DNA of 64,000 nt, taken from the sequence record OZ346175.1. One strand, given 5' to 3'. Position 1 is the stretch's first letter. Every line of letters begins with the position of its first letter. Made by a program: the position numbers and the translations under genes. The notes under the pieces are model-generated. The model was not told where the DNA came from, did no database searches, and saw only the letters and a program-made list of their open reading frames with translations. Of the stretch, positions 7,760 through 64,000 are shown piece after piece. The DNA is from a phage.

Positions 7760-8157
7760 GACTCTTAAACAGACACAGCTTTGTAGTAAAGCGTAAAGTC
7801 TCTGAAGACGGTTATTATAATGATGATGGTGATTGGGTAGCTTCACAAGATATTGTAGAGGTTAACTGTAAAGGTAATATCCAACCATATATCAAAGGTT
7901 CTGTAAAGAATGGTACACAGATTGCTTTACCGGAAGGTATCAGGCTTACCGATACAAGAATCCTGTACACCACATATAAACTTAGAACTTCAGATGATGT
8001 AGAGTGGAATGAGTCTGATATTGTTATGATTGATGGTCATGAGTATGAAGTATTTATGACTATGGATTGGTCACAGCAATTAGCCCATACATCCCATTAT
8101 GAATATATCATTATTAGAAGGGATAAAATGAATGCAGTTAGAAACAGCAGAACTTGA
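7756..8157 (+). CDS. hypothetical structural protein
   Basis: 133 aa ORF, translationally coupled. Confidence 0.5.
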   Translation: MRLLNRHSFVVKRKVSEDGYYNDDGDWVASQDIVEVNCKGNIQPYIKGSVKNGTQIALPEGIRLTDTRILYTTYKLRTSDDVEWNESDIVMIDGHEYEVFMTMDWSQQLAHTSHYEYIIIRRDKMNAVRNSRT

Positions 8158-8731
8158 AAAAGGTCTAGTTAGAGCCTTAGTGGGTGTTATTGGTCACAGA
8201 CTAGCTCGTGATAAAAATAATAGACCAAATGTAATTAGAGCTTACCCTTCTGATAACTCAAATGACAAAGGTTTAAAACCTGACCAGCCATTTATTACCG
8301 TATATTGTCAAGATGCTGCAACACCTTATGGTTGGGTTCTTGATAAGTTTGTTGAGGATGATGTAGTTTGCTACAGAATTGCTTTTCAGATTCCAGTATT
8401 AATTACGGTGAATGGTAAAGGTGCTCACAGTATTATGCTTGAGCTTAAACAACGATTAGAGATGAGTTCAGTCAGAGATTTAATCCTTGAAGAAACAGGA
8501 GCTACAGTACTAGACACTGGAGCTATCCCGAATGACTATACTTATCTCAATACAGATTTCGAAAATTCTGCACCTCTTGTTGTAACTCTTGTAAAAAACT
8601 CAGTCCTGAAGGATGAACGTGGAAGTATTATTGAGCGTGTCATTGTTGATGGTGAGTTGGTTTATGAAGAAGGACAAGAGCCACCAGAATATACTATCCA
8701 TCTAGATGTAGACTCCAAAGGGGTAAAATAA
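8132..8731 (+). CDS. hypothetical structural protein (tail completion?)
   Basis: 199 aa ORF immediately upstream of putative sheath. Confidence 0.45.
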   Translation: MQLETAELEKGLVRALVGVIGHRLARDKNNRPNVIRAYPSDNSNDKGLKPDQPFITVYCQDAATPYGWVLDKFVEDDVVCYRIAFQIPVLITVNGKGAHSIMLELKQRLEMSSVRDLILEETGATVLDTGAIPNDYTYLNTDFENSAPLVVTLVKNSVLKDERGSIIERVIVDGELVYEEGQEPPEYTIHLDVDSKGVK

Positions 8732-10084
8732 ATGTGGAATCCAATTGTTAATGTAGATATTACATTGAACACCGCAGGAACTACAAGAGAAGGTTTTGGT
8801 TTGCCACTATTCTTAGCTTCAACAGATAACTTTGAAGAAAGAGTACGTGGTTACACTTCCTTAACTGAAGTTGCTGAAGATTTCGATGAGAATACTGCTG
8901 CATATAAGGCTGCTAAACAACTTTGGAGTCAGACTCCTAAAGTAACTCAGCTTTATATCGGTAGACGCGCTATGCAGTACACTGTATCAATTCCTGATGC
9001 CGTTACCGAAAGTACAGACTACTCAATTACTGTAGCTGTTGGCGGTGGAATTTCTCAACCATACCAGTACACAGCACAAGATTCAGACACTGCTGAGGTA
9101 GTGTTGCAACAGTTTAAAACACAGATTGAAGCTGACCCAACAATCAAAGATAAGGTTTCTGTGAATGTAACTGGTAGCAATGGCTCTGTCACAATGATTA
9201 TTACCAAAGCTGGTGATAATGACTTTGTGAAAGTAACAACCACAGCACAGACTGTATATATTGCAAGTACAACTGCTGATACAGCAGCAACTGCTCTGGC
9301 AGCTATCGAAGCTTACTCTACTGACTGGTATTTCATTGCAGCAGAAGACAGAACTCAACAGTTTGTCTTAGCAATGGCTTCTGAGATTCAGGCTCGTAAG
9401 AAAATCTTCTTTACGGCTAACTCCGATGTAACAGCCCTACAAGGTACAGAATTAGCCAGTGCAAATGATGTTCCAGCACAGCTTGCTAAGAATATGTACA
9501 CTCGTACAGTTTGCTTGTGGCATCACGCAGCAGCAGAAGATTATCCAGAGATGGCATACATTGCTTATGGTGCTCCATATGATGCAGGCTCAATTGCTTG
9601 GGGTAATGCTCAGCTAACTGGCGTAGCAGCTTCTCTACAACCATCTAATCAGAGACCTCTGACAAGTATTCAGAAGTCTGCTTTAGATGTACGTCACTGT
9701 AACTTTATTGACCTTGATGGTGGTGTTCCAGTGGTTCGTAGAGGGATTACTTCTGGTGGGGAATGGATTGATATCGTCCGTGGTGTTGACTGGTTAGAAT
9801 CAGACCTGAAAACTTCTCTGAGAGACTTGCTAATTAACCAGAAGGGTGGTAAGATTACTTATGATGATACTGGTATTACCCGTATTCGTCAAGTCATTGA
9901 AACCTCTCTGCAAAGAGCAGTCAACAGAAACTTCCTGTCATCTTACACAGTTAATGTTCCTAAAGCCTCTCAAGTTGCTTTAGCAGACAAGAAAGCACGT
10001 ATCCTGAAAGATGTTACCTTCGCAGGTATCTTAGCAGGGGCTATCTTGGATGTTGACTTGAAAGGTACAGTGGCTTACGAATAA
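8732..10084 (+). CDS. tail sheath protein (putative)
   Basis: 450 aa ORF followed by ~148 aa tube-like ORF, chaperone pair and tape measure; Mu/P2-like order. Confidence 0.5.
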   Translation: MWNPIVNVDITLNTAGTTREGFGLPLFLASTDNFEERVRGYTSLTEVAEDFDENTAAYKAAKQLWSQTPKVTQLYIGRRAMQYTVSIPDAVTESTDYSITVAVGGGISQPYQYTAQDSDTAEVVLQQFKTQIEADPTIKDKVSVNVTGSNGSVTMIITKAGDNDFVKVTTTAQTVYIASTTADTAATALAAIEAYSTDWYFIAAEDRTQQFVLAMASEIQARKKIFFTANSDVTALQGTELASANDVPAQLAKNMYTRTVCLWHHAAAEDYPEMAYIAYGAPYDAGSIAWGNAQLTGVAASLQPSNQRPLTSIQKSALDVRHCNFIDLDGGVPVVRRGITSGGEWIDIVRGVDWLESDLKTSLRDLLINQKGGKITYDDTGITRIRQVIETSLQRAVNRNFLSSYTVNVPKASQVALADKKARILKDVTFAGILAGAILDVDLKGTVAYE

Positions 10085-10099
10085 TAGAGGTAAATTGGA

Positions 10100-10546
10100 A
10101 TGGCTATGTATCAGCAATATTCCCCTAAAGACGTTGTATGTAGCTGGAACGGCATTGCTATTGAAGGCTTTGCTCCAGACTCATTCTTGCGTCTACAGAG
10201 AACATCACCACTTGTGACACCAGTTGTTGGTGCAGGTGGTCAGGTTGCTCTGACACGAAATGCAGACAAGACAGGTACTATTGAGATTGAGCTAATGCAG
10301 ACTTCTCTCTCTAACCAGATGCTTTCTGCAATTCAAGCTAAACAAGACAATATGGAACTTGAAGAAGATATCTCTTCTAACTTCGTAATCTACGACCCAT
10401 CAGGCTCTGTTCTGGCAACTGGTATTAACGCTTGGTTGCAGGAGTTACCACAGATTGAACTTGGTCGTGACCAGAACTCTAAAACTTGGATTTTTGGTTG
10501 TGAGAAGTTAGACTACACTTCTACAATTCCAGCGTCAAGTGTTTAA
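10100..10546 (+). CDS. tail tube protein (putative)
   Basis: 148 aa ORF after sheath candidate, followed by terminator. Confidence 0.45.
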   Translation: MAMYQQYSPKDVVCSWNGIAIEGFAPDSFLRLQRTSPLVTPVVGAGGQVALTRNADKTGTIEIELMQTSLSNQMLSAIQAKQDNMELEEDISSNFVIYDPSGSVLATGINAWLQELPQIELGRDQNSKTWIFGCEKLDYTSTIPASSV

Positions 10547-62679: not shown

Positions 62680-63465
62680 ATGGGTATTGTAAAAATCATC
62701 AATGGGGATATCTTCTCAGCATTTGATAAAGGTAAGTTTGATATTATTGGTCACGGTTGTAACTGTATGAACTTAATGGGTGCAGGTATCGCTGATAAGA
62801 TTTCTAAACTTTACCCAAAAGCATATGAGACCGATACAGAAGTTTATCTGTATGCAGGTGGTATAAGTCACAAACCCTGTGAAAATTTGCTAGGCAATTT
62901 CTCTGTAGCACGTTTAAAACAAGGCCGTATAGCCAATCTTTACACTCAGCTTAAGACTGGTAAAGATGCCCGATACAGTGATTTAGAGTCATCTTTGAAG
63001 CAACTTAACAGATACTGTGAAGTTAATCAGTTGAAGAAAGTTGGCTTACCTATGATTGGTGCAGGTATCGGCGGACTAGACCCTCAAGCCGTCACAGTTA
63101 TCATTAATCAGGTGATGAAGAGTGTAGATGTTTATCTGTATGTCTACGAAGGAGAGATGTACCACAAGTTACGCTCAGGTTGGAAGAATTACTGTGAACC
63201 AGAATACTTTGCAGGTGTAGTAGTGTTCATAGACGACACAGTTACCCTCTTCAGACGAAGAAAAGGTAAGGTACATCAAAGTAACCCTCCGGTTGAAAAG
63301 ATGTCTCTAAGTAACGCTCTAGTTACCCACCTGTCGAAGAGCAATCACAGGATTGCAGTAACATTTGGCAGTGATGCAGATACATATATCTATGCAAGAA
63401 CTGATGAGGATATCGAGTTAATCTTCTCTTCACCAGAGCTTACCTTCTTAGACGCAAAGAACTAA
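62680..63465 (+). CDS. macro-domain protein (ADP-ribose binding/processing) with C-terminal extension
   Basis: N-terminal GDIFSAFDKGKFDIIGHGCNCMNLMGAGIA and LPMIGAGIGGLDP resemble macro-domain binding loops. Confidence 0.55.
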   Translation: MGIVKIINGDIFSAFDKGKFDIIGHGCNCMNLMGAGIADKISKLYPKAYETDTEVYLYAGGISHKPCENLLGNFSVARLKQGRIANLYTQLKTGKDARYSDLESSLKQLNRYCEVNQLKKVGLPMIGAGIGGLDPQAVTVIINQVMKSVDVYLYVYEGEMYHKLRSGWKNYCEPEYFAGVVVFIDDTVTLFRRRKGKVHQSNPPVEKMSLSNALVTHLSKSNHRIAVTFGSDADTYIYARTDEDIELIFSSPELTFLDAKN

Positions 63466-63495
63466 GAAACTTCGTAGTAAATTCACAATAGACTA

Positions 63496-63539
63496 AGCCT
63501 TTCTTATCTGGTAAATTTTTCAGGTAAGGAGGGCTTTTT
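63496..63539 (+). terminator. terminator-like hairpin with G.U pairs
   Basis: AAGCCTTTCTTATCTG / CAGGTAAGGAGGGCTT arms followed by TTTTT. Confidence 0.4.
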
Positions 63540-63735
63540 CATTTCAGATTTGTGCAGGTAGAGTTCTGTAGAGAAATCTATAGAGAAAATTTTGAACTCC
63601 AAAGAGAAAATTCATTCTCAAACTGTGCAGGTAATCTCCAAAGAGCTTTTTCATTTTCAAAACGTGCAGACCCCGCTCAGGTCGGGCAAGAAAAATCATT
63701 TTAGAATTGTGCAGGTAGGTGGGTGCAGGTGGGGA
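63537..63735 (+). repeat. array of four direct repeats sharing TGTGCAGGTA core
   Basis: Exact TGTGCAGGTA at 63551, 63624, 63708; degenerate copies at 63663 and 63723; flanking TTCATTYTCARA conserved; spacing 73-84 bp. Confidence 0.6.
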
Positions 63736-63893
63736 TGTCGCCATTTCTCACAAGGCTACCACATCTGGAAATAAAAGTCAACAGAAAAATTTGTAGCGGA
63801 TTGAAAAATAATTCTTGATTGTAGTTCTGTTTTGTGGTAGTCGTGCGCGCCCGTTTCATTCCATTTTTGCCAAAAATATTTTAAAAATTTTTA

Positions 63894-63922
63894 TTGACTC
63901 TTTGAACGGGTTTTTATAGTAT
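63894..63922 (+). promoter_or_regulatory. sigma70-like promoter with AT-rich UP-like element
   Basis: -35 TTGACT 63894-63899, -10 TATAGT/TAGTAT ~63915-63922, upstream A/T tract; precedes SD AGGAGAA and ATG 63976. Confidence 0.45.
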
Positions 63923-63975
63923 TTGCATCAGACGGGGCGACAAGCTCACTACCTTAAACTAGGAGAATCTAAAAA

Positions 63976-64000
63976 ATGCTTTACAGTCGTGAATTGATGG
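63976..64000 (+). CDS. 5' end of ORF truncated by window edge
   Basis: ATG 63976 preceded by AGGAGAA SD; reads MLYSRELM to window end. Confidence 0.4.

Follow-up and report, generated by a model that had tools for sequence, protein, structure and literature searches.

A conserved array of direct repeats at a single locus of Felix-O1-like phage genomes, predicted to bind a protein

Introduction

Why should a phage keep, in a stretch of its genome that codes for nothing, several copies of the same short motif, all pointing in the same direction, and what could they be for? The window that raises this question, by which we mean the whole stretch of DNA analysed (64,000 nucleotides of record OZ346175.1), belongs to a Felixounavirus genome (subfamily Ounavirinae, Felix-O1-like). 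The region is 94-96% identical to that of Escherichia phages skuden, dune and JN01, and 226 phage records match it. A preliminary description, made from the letters of the sequence, had noticed an array of direct repeats within a non-coding region of about 500 bp, followed by a promoter-like element at 63894 and by a GC-rich patch. These landmarks are all present: the gap between genes measures 510 bp (63466-63975), the promoter scan finds TTGACT at the expected place, and the patch lies at about 63840-63852. What follows deals first with the anatomy of the locus, then with the various functions that such an array might have.

The locus and its flanking elements

The features that surround the repeats are the following:

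62680-63465, plus strand: macro-domain gene ('phosphatase'/Tk.4-like; Felix O1 ORF13), Pfam Macro E=6.5e-8
63495-63541, plus strand: intrinsic terminator, t13 homologue, with a 17-pair stem and then a T-tract (terminator scan)
63719-63772, no strand assigned: variable G/C-rich segment with a half-site duplicate GGTGCAGGTG at 63723-63732 (alignments, conservation profile, G4 scan)
63773-63820, no strand assigned: conserved non-coding block AAAAGTCAACAGAAAAATTTGTAG..TTGAAAAATAATTCTTGATT, with almost no variation among 22 sequences, its pattern being present in 28 IMG/VR stretches
63866-63922, plus strand: AT-rich UP-like stretch and sigma-70 promoter (promoter scan; conserved across genera)
63976-64000, plus strand: first small gene of the terminal block, homologue of Felix O1 ORF15 (Barry and Felix O1 annotations); the window ends inside this gene

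The T-tract of the terminator overlaps the first repeat copy, of which it makes the 5' end. Its Felix O1 counterpart, t13, has a stability of -21.8 kcal/mol and is the most stable terminator of Table 2 in the genome paper of that phage (PMC3185647). At the other side of the gap, the promoter consists of TTGACT (63894-63899) followed either by 17 nt and TAGTAT or by 15 nt and TATAGT. This promoter comes first in a terminal block of about 15 small genes without assigned function, a block which is rich in sigma-70-like promoters. In all five lineages considered below the macro-domain gene comes ahead of the array, and in every one of them the array sits between t13 and this first promoter.

Two further elements of the gap should be mentioned. 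The variable segment has another allele: in many relatives it is C-rich, and its minus strand then carries a canonical G-quadruplex motif of four runs, while the G4 scan found no canonical motif of this kind anywhere in this window. On the minus strand of the conserved block, at about 63781-63747, inspection reveals a weak promoter-like TTGACT-17 nt-TAGCCT with a TG extension, below the threshold of the scan.

The repeat unit

The decamer TGTGCAGGTA, which had first drawn attention to the locus, is indeed found as an exact match at 63551, 63624 and 63708, always on the plus strand, and nowhere else in the 64-kb window. Dinucleotide-preserving shuffles contain it 0.21 times on average, and a single one of 100 shuffles had at least three matches. 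If one mismatch is permitted the count becomes unremarkable (8 matches for 4.8 expected), so that the signal of TGTGCAGGTA resides in its exact, clustered copies.

This decamer is part of something longer. A repeat search of the window returned families of 28-34 nt, and the unit can be written as a bipartite motif of about 29 bp, G-W5-TCATTTT-N6-YGTGCA(GG)TAG, set within a period of 34-45 nt. Its half-elements, TCATTTT and YGTGCA, start 13 bp apart, with a G and an A/T pentamer ahead of them. The preliminary description had counted at least four copies of a motif of about 24 bp: the four copies stand, the length has to be replaced by that of a conserved core of about 29 nt. The simplified pattern TCATT-N8-GTGCA is found four times, at 63539, 63612, 63651 and 63696, where 0.21 occurrences are expected (0 of 100 shuffles reached four), which makes the copy at 63663 a full, fourth member of the array. 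This is copy 3 below (CGTGCAGACC, 35 bits); it had been correctly located, and mistaken for a degenerate version. The second copy deemed degenerate, GGTGCAGGTG at 63723, has to be dropped from the list: it is only a duplicated GTGCAGGT half-site, without the TCATT half, scoring less than 8 bits and missing from the relatives that have the other allele of this segment. The array itself is composed as follows:

63533-63561, plus strand: repeat copy 1, GCTTTTTCATTTCAGATTTGTGCAGGTAG, 40.4 bits with the PWM, pattern match; kept in all relatives
63561-63605, plus strand: spacer between copies 1 and 2, with sub-repeats TCTNTAGAGAAA and GAACTCCAAAGAG, no full copy and no PWM match above 8 bits
63606-63634, plus strand: repeat copy 2, GAAAATTCATTCTCAAACTGTGCAGGTAA, 34.2 bits, pattern match
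63645-63673, plus strand: repeat copy 3, GCTTTTTCATTTTCAAAACGTGCAGACCC, 35.2 bits, pattern match
63690-63718, plus strand: repeat copy 4, GAAAAATCATTTTAGAATTGTGCAGGTAG, 37.4 bits, pattern match

From start to start the copies are 73, 39 and 45 bp apart, they span about 190 bp altogether, and their mutual identity is 64-79%. The PWM was built from 52 distinct instances of the motif, the consensus of which is GCTTTTTCATTTTCAAATTGTGCAGGTAG, the most informative positions being the first G, TCATTT and GTGCA; both strands were scanned. A CRISPR array, already discarded in the preliminary description, is ruled out: there are four copies only, with this level of divergence between them, their spacers (10-44 nt) are unequal and conserved across genera, and there are no cas genes.

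A single locus, proper to the Ounavirinae

A scan of the whole genome for the motif had been put forward as the test that could refute the significance of the array. When the window is completed by the remaining 23 kb, taken from skuden, the four copies score between 34 and 40 bits on this ~87-kb genome (both strands), and the next best site scores 10.8 bits. The motif thus stands far above background and at one locus only, and with no other site above 10.8 bits the array is a single-locus element, not a dispersed phage-specific promoter or operator motif.

The search was extended to other genomes. A host chromosomal counterpart, sought as two adjacent copies in 185,579 bacterial and archaeal species (one genome each), is discarded: the hits were in unrelated taxa, in tandem or coding repeats, with none from the Enterobacterales. 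Nor is the same array found in other phage groups, the IMG/VR collection yielding, beyond the Ounavirinae, unrelated repeats only. A general linkage to macro genes is excluded as well, as the array is absent from unrelated phages which have a macro gene 40% identical to this one. We note in passing an AT-rich phage of 177-208 kb where TCATTAGAAAWATGTGCA occurs more than 12 times; this is treated as a coincidence driven by the pattern.

Could a familiar protein of the host recognize the motif? Consensus strings for DnaA, IHF, CRP, Fur, FNR, ArcA, LexA, NtrC, MarA/SoxS, Tus, sigma-54 and sigma-E were compared with it, and none fits all three lineages tested. DnaA boxes are discarded, with 7 of the 8 specified positions present only in Kolesnikvirus cores (CTATGCACA), while the Felixounavirus cores are not among the best 6/8 matches to the box. 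A sigma-E promoter fares no better: it matches at 9 of 11 positions only in copy 2 of the phage of this window, because of one C at 63617. As for the searchable full-text literature, no description of the motif was found in it, the strings of the motif matching unrelated primers only. The Felix O1 genome paper lists t13 and other direct repeats, without the array, a part of which it treats as ORF14 (PMC3185647).

Within the subfamily, by contrast with this absence elsewhere, three to five copies are found at the same locus and in the same orientation in Felixounavirus, Suspvirus, Mooglevirus, Kolesnikvirus and a deeper, uncultured lineage of 88 kb. The survey covered 26 IMG/VR loci together with the GenBank loci of Salmonella phage VSe11, Suspvirus SUSP2, Michonne and phiEa21-4, with the same place and orientation throughout; the four named phages also share gene order and a gap of 460-700 bp. 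Spacings are 73-77, 39-41 and 45 bp in Felixounavirus, Suspvirus and Mooglevirus (75/41/45 in Mooglevirus Michonne). Erwinia phage phiEa21-4 (Kolesnikvirus) has four copies at 37/37/39 bp, with the core TGTGCATAG, and the uncultured 88-kb lineage, where the macro gene is shorter (148 aa), has four to five copies of AAAWTCATTTTAAAAAYGTGCATAGG. In Salmonella phage BPS17L1 copy 2 and the spacer between copies 1 and 2 are replaced, leaving three copies at 83/45.

The array is kept although the flanking macro protein falls to 64-70% identity or below. BLAST comparison with the Erwinia phages aligns 63647-63713 (77.6% identity), the rest of the gap being too diverged, and what can be aligned with phiEa21-4 is precisely copies 3 and 4 with their linker. 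In an alignment of 22 sequences, 65% of the 72 core columns are invariant, as against 20% of third and 69% of second codon positions in the macro gene: the core is conserved about as well as second codon positions, or non-synonymous sites. To judge from these alignments, the array is under strong purifying selection in five lineages of the Ounavirinae. The distance between the last copy and the promoter, about 185-226 bp, is also retained across lineages, despite replacement of the sequence in between.

A probable array of binding sites, and what a bound complex might do

Repetition, presence at one locus, common orientation and conservation, in a region devoid of coding or RNA signal (see below), lead us to infer that the array is a set of cis-acting binding sites for one sequence-specific protein. 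We give this interpretation a probability of roughly 0.8. The candidate protein would load side by side on the four sites of about 29 bp, and a nucleoprotein complex would be built over some 190 bp, in the interval that separates t13 from the first promoter of the terminal block. The purpose of such a complex is a matter on which anatomy and precedent allow a ranking: a replication origin would come first, regulation or delimitation of the early block second, and a role in DNA entry comparable to that known in T5 third.

The first of these functions would be to start replication, the array acting as an iteron-type origin or as a site auxiliary to an origin. Non-palindromic direct repeats gathered at one locus are the usual anatomy of iterons (lambda, P1, SPP1, T4 oriE), and at least three direct repeats of the same orientation are indeed present at one locus here, four in the window and three to five in its relatives. 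Several observations may be counted on the same side: the gap that houses the array is one of the few long conserved non-coding gaps of the genome, RT-PCR of Felix O1 ORF14 indicates transcription over copies 2-4, and the Felix O1 genome paper makes no mention of a replication origin. That the complex serves the initiation of replication is on these grounds a tentative proposal, and one that we would hold as possible rather than probable.

The replisome itself speaks against it. With an A-family DNA polymerase, a Toprim/DnaB_C primase-helicase, an exonuclease and a ligase, it is T7-like, and origins of the T7 type rely on promoters and AT-rich DNA rather than on iterons. Pfam and PHROGs recognized no domain of an initiator or origin-binding type in the proteins of the replication module or of the early block, where many ORFs are without assigned function; the annotation of Bas63 does not list an initiator, and the neighbouring early proteins showed no DNA-binding domain. 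The earlier suggestion of iterons or of a binding-site array is partly supported, with the array, its uniqueness and the purifying selection in its favour; the features more specific to iterons were looked for and not found. Spacing is neither of about 22 bp nor in helical phase, with distances of 37-45 and 73-83 bp which are not multiples of 10.5. An AT-rich unwinding element does not adjoin the repeats either, the DNA directly 3' of them being G/C-rich or made of the C-rich G-quadruplex allele; the only AT-rich stretch (63866-63893) is about 150 bp away, abuts the -35 of the promoter and is explained as an UP element. GC and AT skews, a weak test, do not change across the array. Finally, an origin might just as plausibly be located in the 1.7-kb terminal region, rich in repeats, or in a divergent gap of 620 bp.

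The same complex might instead control or bound the terminal block of small early genes, whether the protein bound comes from the phage or from the host. It would activate, or later silence, the first promoter, some 185-225 bp downstream, or else it would be a starting point for spreading across the block, or shield the block from read-through. The situation of the array is well suited to such a role, as every lineage has it between the strongest terminator listed and the first promoter of some 15 genes, and at a distance from this promoter that is held while the intervening sequence is not. The Felix O1 authors also state that how transcription is timed in their phage is not known. The motif, however, is missing from all other early promoters, the sites are located 175-360 bp upstream of the one that they would govern, and they are direct repeats, whereas repressor sites are typically palindromes. 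Transcription in Felix O1 does not follow the array either: the RT-PCR maximum is at 5 min for ORF13, upstream, as for ORFs 16 and 20-22, downstream, and at 25 min for ORFs 14, 17, 19 and 23 (PMC3185647). With ORF13 peaking as early as genes located on the other side, a clean temporal boundary at the array, between early and middle genes, is unsupported. Control or delimitation of the block is held as slightly less likely than replication, after which it comes in our ranking.

A checkpoint for DNA entry?

A more unusual possibility is suggested by phage T5. In that phage the segment transferred in the first step amounts to 7.9% of the genome, and a conserved region of untranslated repeats lies at its border (10.1101/866236). 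By analogy, the array might be a checkpoint for DNA entry, similar to the injection-stop region of T5, and mark the inner edge of a terminal stretch, some 8% of the genome, which would be delivered and expressed first. Positions agree with this view. Hafnia phage SPARTY, the record of which was opened at ends defined by PhageTerm (PMC8928762), has an exact direct terminal repeat (DTR) of 439 bp, and its array is 7.7 kb from the end of a genome of 85.5 kb (9%). Escherichia coli phage I14.1 (PMC11737134) has an exact DTR of 581 bp, with the array 7.3 kb from the right end out of 89.4 kb (8.2%). In these two phages the array is the inner limit of a terminal segment making 8-9% of the genome, and the interval between the array and the end contains small genes of unassigned function only.

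There is some likeness in the repeats as well. The DRD repeats of T5 (AY587007) are nine copies of wTGTGCAAATCCGACA, in the same orientation and irregularly spaced, with which the TGTGCA core is shared, and the DRC repeats contain TTTTTAAAT..AATCATT. This common use of TGTGCA and of an A/T-tract followed by TCATT is suggestive, but the match is of 6-7 nt only and was noticed post hoc; the chance of sharing the hexamer, in a rough estimate that is itself post hoc, is about 1-5%.

Other features of T5 do not have their equivalent here. The DTR of the Ounavirinae, 0.4-0.6 kb long, excludes both the block and the array, whereas the long terminal repeat of T5 has 10 kb: the array is not embedded in a terminal repeat of 8-13 kb, since the DTRs have 439, 581 and 608 bp. 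Instead of large inverted repeats with paired DnaA boxes and palindromes, weak scattered inverted repeats only are found, and the likeness to DnaA boxes (7/8) is restricted to Kolesnikvirus. The DRD repeats themselves lie beyond the shear point of T5 and have no proven role. Moreover, we found no report in the literature consulted of a two-step DNA transfer in Ounavirinae or Felix-O1-like myoviruses. A DNA-entry checkpoint is accordingly rated as quite unlikely on the strength of the analogy, and it is slightly less likely still that the Ounavirinae, with their contractile tails, resemble T5 in a two-stage delivery or activation of the genome, with the array as the stop or boundary of a first-step segment of about 8%. 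Were this true, T5 and the Ounavirinae would both use direct repeats of the TGTGCA type, possibly read by one conserved host factor, and the first-step segment would be made of small genes for host takeover.

Readings at the level of RNA, of coding sequence and of packaging

The repeats might also act once transcribed, as linear motifs in read-through from t13 or in an antisense transcript of the minus strand, which would be a sponge for a protein or an sRNA, or a site for antitermination. The region of the array is transcribed: an RT-PCR assay that did not distinguish the strands gave, in Felix O1, an ORF14 product with its maximum at 25 min (PMC3185647). The TTGACT-17-TAGCCT pair of hexamers noticed by inspection across the conserved block could furnish the minus-strand transcript. 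This pair, however, scores below threshold and its -10 is not kept in the C-rich allele, and a very strong terminator precedes copies 2-4. RNAalifold, applied to eight diverse sequences (217 columns), gives -10.5 and -7.1 kcal/mol with covariation of about zero on both strands, and the best Rfam hit (E=0.19) is far below the gathering score. A structured RNA is ruled out by these two results, and a function of the linear motifs in RNA is improbable.

Coding sequences have been proposed at this very place. In most relatives open frames of 54-110 codons run across the array on both strands, and some have been annotated: Felix O1 ORF14 on the plus strand and, on the minus strand, CDSs in the records of Michonne, BPS17L1 and others. 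ORF14 (8042-8254, 70 aa) would correspond to about 63592-63804 of the window and overlaps copies 2-4, and the search made by the Felix O1 authors left it without homologue (PMC3185647). The pattern of variation is not that of a gene: variable columns are spread evenly over codon positions (33/31/34 in the plus frame, 35/33/37 in the minus frame), as compared with 108/82/209 in the macro gene. Spacings of 37, 41, 73 and 75 nt place the copies in different frames in different genera, 2-nt indels between genera disrupt the frames that cross the array, and a convincing ribosome-binding site is absent ahead of these ORFs. Codon-position and frame tests lead us to reject coding ORFs on either strand, and a small protein gene, be it ORF14 or the minus-strand ORF of 63-66 aa, is a most improbable explanation.

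A terminase recognition site or a genome end at the array is just as improbable. What could support it is that four IMG/VR contigs, all from one metagenome, break inside the gap just 3' of the array, two of them starting and one ending with a Nextera adapter, and that these phages have no known small terminase subunit. Yet the breaks coincide with the C-rich, minus-strand G-quadruplex allele 3' of the array, the fourth contig has a 55-bp overlap of its end k-mers, typical of a circular assembly, and an artefact of assembly or of Tn5 tagmentation is the more likely cause. Exact terminal repeats are situated 6.7-7.7 kb away, in another non-coding region, a separate stretch of 1.7 kb with its own TTAACA/TGTTAAG repeats; besides those of SPARTY and I14.1, a DTR of 608 bp was established in UAB_Phi87 by Bal31 digestion and run-off sequencing (PMC4837284), although the GenBank record of this phage does not open at the ends so mapped. 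With breaks falling in the G-quadruplex allele and DTRs of 439, 581 and 608 bp elsewhere, none being at the array, a terminus or pac site at this place is rejected.

Significance

Felix O1 and its relatives are among the phages most used for diagnosis and therapy against Salmonella and E. coli, and Bas63 is emerging as a genetic model. In kind, the array is an ordinary array of binding sites; as a member of that kind it is undescribed within the searchable literature. A compact cis element that is conserved in the whole subfamily provides a concrete handle for finding the protein predicted to bind it, and for mapping an origin or an early/late switch. It also helps to decide what minimized or engineered genomes must retain. 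For annotators, a word of caution is in order: the 'hypothetical proteins' annotated across the gap are probably not genes.

Comparison with known systems

It remains to set the array against the systems that it resembles. With CRISPR it shares the alternation of repeats with short non-repeated segments. The R sites of lambda cosB, the pac boxes of SPP1 and P1, and the TTAACA/TGTTAAG repeats of the Ounavirinae themselves are likewise short direct repeats clustered in non-coding DNA. Arrays of the terminase type are bound cooperatively by a protein that handles DNA, and comparable binding is predicted here; as regards the terminal-repeat region of the Ounavirinae, the motif of the array is absent from it and the array is 6.7-7.7 kb away.

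The 'Repeat Region 3' of T5 is closer in its situation. Both it and the array are conserved untranslated repeats which border a terminal block of small early genes making about 8% of the genome, and the repeat region of T5 is better conserved than many of the neighbouring ORFs (Davison, bioRxiv 10.1101/866236). The A/T-tract and AATCATT of DRC resemble the A/T pentamer and TCATT element of the array. They differ in that the T5 region occupies 1.2 kb inside a terminal repeat of 10 kb and comprises large inverted repeats, palindromes, paired DnaA boxes and a site-specific nick.

Iterons, finally, offer the comparison that the preferred reading, an array of sites for one protein, most readily calls to mind. 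Typical iterons have 17-22 bp and follow one another at intervals of about 22 bp, whereas the unit here is of about 29 bp, with a period of 37-45 bp, or of 73-83 bp where a copy is missing, and iteron origins further differ from the array in that the latter has no adjacent AT-rich unwinding element, no Rep gene that could be found, and a replisome of the T7 type. The arrays of plasmids P1, F and R6K, of lambda ori, SPP1 oriL and T4 oriE nevertheless share with it non-palindromic copies of the same orientation, and iteron origins, as is generally known of them, resemble it in being placed at a single non-coding locus by a promoter and in being strongly conserved.

The segment 3' of the array

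Directly 3' of the array, that is, of the four same-strand copies of a ~29-bp motif that follow the macro gene, the genomes carry one of two unrelated alleles of similar length. In many relatives the minus strand has a canonical G-quadruplex motif (GGGGAGAGGGGGAGTAAGAGGGGGAGAGGGG) there, immediately after the array. The alternative allele is that of window 63719-63772, and no G3+ x4 motif was found across the entire 64-kb window.

~300-310 nt past the macro gene, minus strand: G-quadruplex motif, in L005 (SUSP2), L004 (Michonne), L028, L012 and L022
Equivalent of window ~63735-63790: contig breaks 3' of the array, in L018, L020, L042, L045, L051 and L063
Window 63592-63774 (+) and 63544-63744 (-): ORFs crossing the array

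The contig breaks form a common start or end point, just 3' of the array, of near-full-length Felixounavirus and Mooglevirus contigs (87-90 kb) from IMG/VR metagenome 3300045988. Two of the contigs begin with a Nextera i7 adapter, one terminates in CTGTCTCTTATACACATCT, and one displays a 55-bp end overlap. An artefact of Tn5 or of assembly is one possible cause of the breaks, a genuine DNA discontinuity another.

In many GenBank records the ORFs that cross the array are named as hypothetical proteins, Felix O1 ORF14, Michonne gp131 and BPS17L1 gp012 among them. No coding signature was found in these array-crossing ORFs; the proteins called over the array are probably mis-annotations. Record PP892526.1 is labelled Tequintavirus, but its sequence is that of a Felixounavirus. 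The 147-kb record of 'Staphylococcus phage SA1' (GU169904.1) contains the array's Felix-O1-type region (87.5% identity), a sign that the record may be chimeric or contaminated.

Other repeats and a deeper lineage

A second repeat system, different from the array, is present in these genomes: a non-coding region of 1-1.7 kb, dense with repeats of TCTTAACA, CTTGTTAG and CTGTTAAG, often at an 11-bp spacing.

L007 16430-18180 (skuden), L163 1-581 (I14.1 direct terminal repeat) and L064 1-439 (SPARTY direct terminal repeat): terminal-repeat region, outside the window
L007 18000-24700 (skuden): early small-gene block, downstream of the window
L161 9440-9860: array region of the deeper lineage (L080/L161, IMG/VR 3300045988_063805, 88,375 bp)

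In Felixounavirus, TTAACA-type repeats occur near the genome ends only; in a deeper Ounavirinae-like lineage a stretch of them separates the array from the next promoter. The array has 4-5 copies in that lineage, one of them CGTGGATAGG. Its macro gene encodes 148 aa, and lacks the C-terminal extension of the window 'phosphatase' (62680-63465), a protein of 261 aa in which the Macro domain match is confined to residues 25-141 and the C-terminal ~110 residues gave no Pfam match.

In skuden, downstream of the window, TTTACA-17-TAAAGT promoter-like sites recur ahead of many genes of the early block (34 sites vs 21 expected). Terminator/promoter cassettes of 57 bp and 39 bp are repeated between these genes, according to the Felix O1 genome paper (PMC3185647).

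Likenesses in other phages

In an unrelated, very AT-rich large phage, TCATTAGAAAWATGTGCA recurs more than 12 times inside an 800-bp non-coding region, with copies in both orientations and half-sites identical to those of the array.

L088 7300-8070, and L072: IMG/VR contigs of 177 and 208 kb, ~25% GC

This likeness is probably a coincidence arising from the search pattern. In T5 (AY587007; L165, record coordinates 9468-10409), the DRC repeats and palindromes (GAATCATTATCATTC) look like a Fur box, and the nine DRD repeats (wTGTGCAAATCCGACA) have a TGTGCA core in common with the array.
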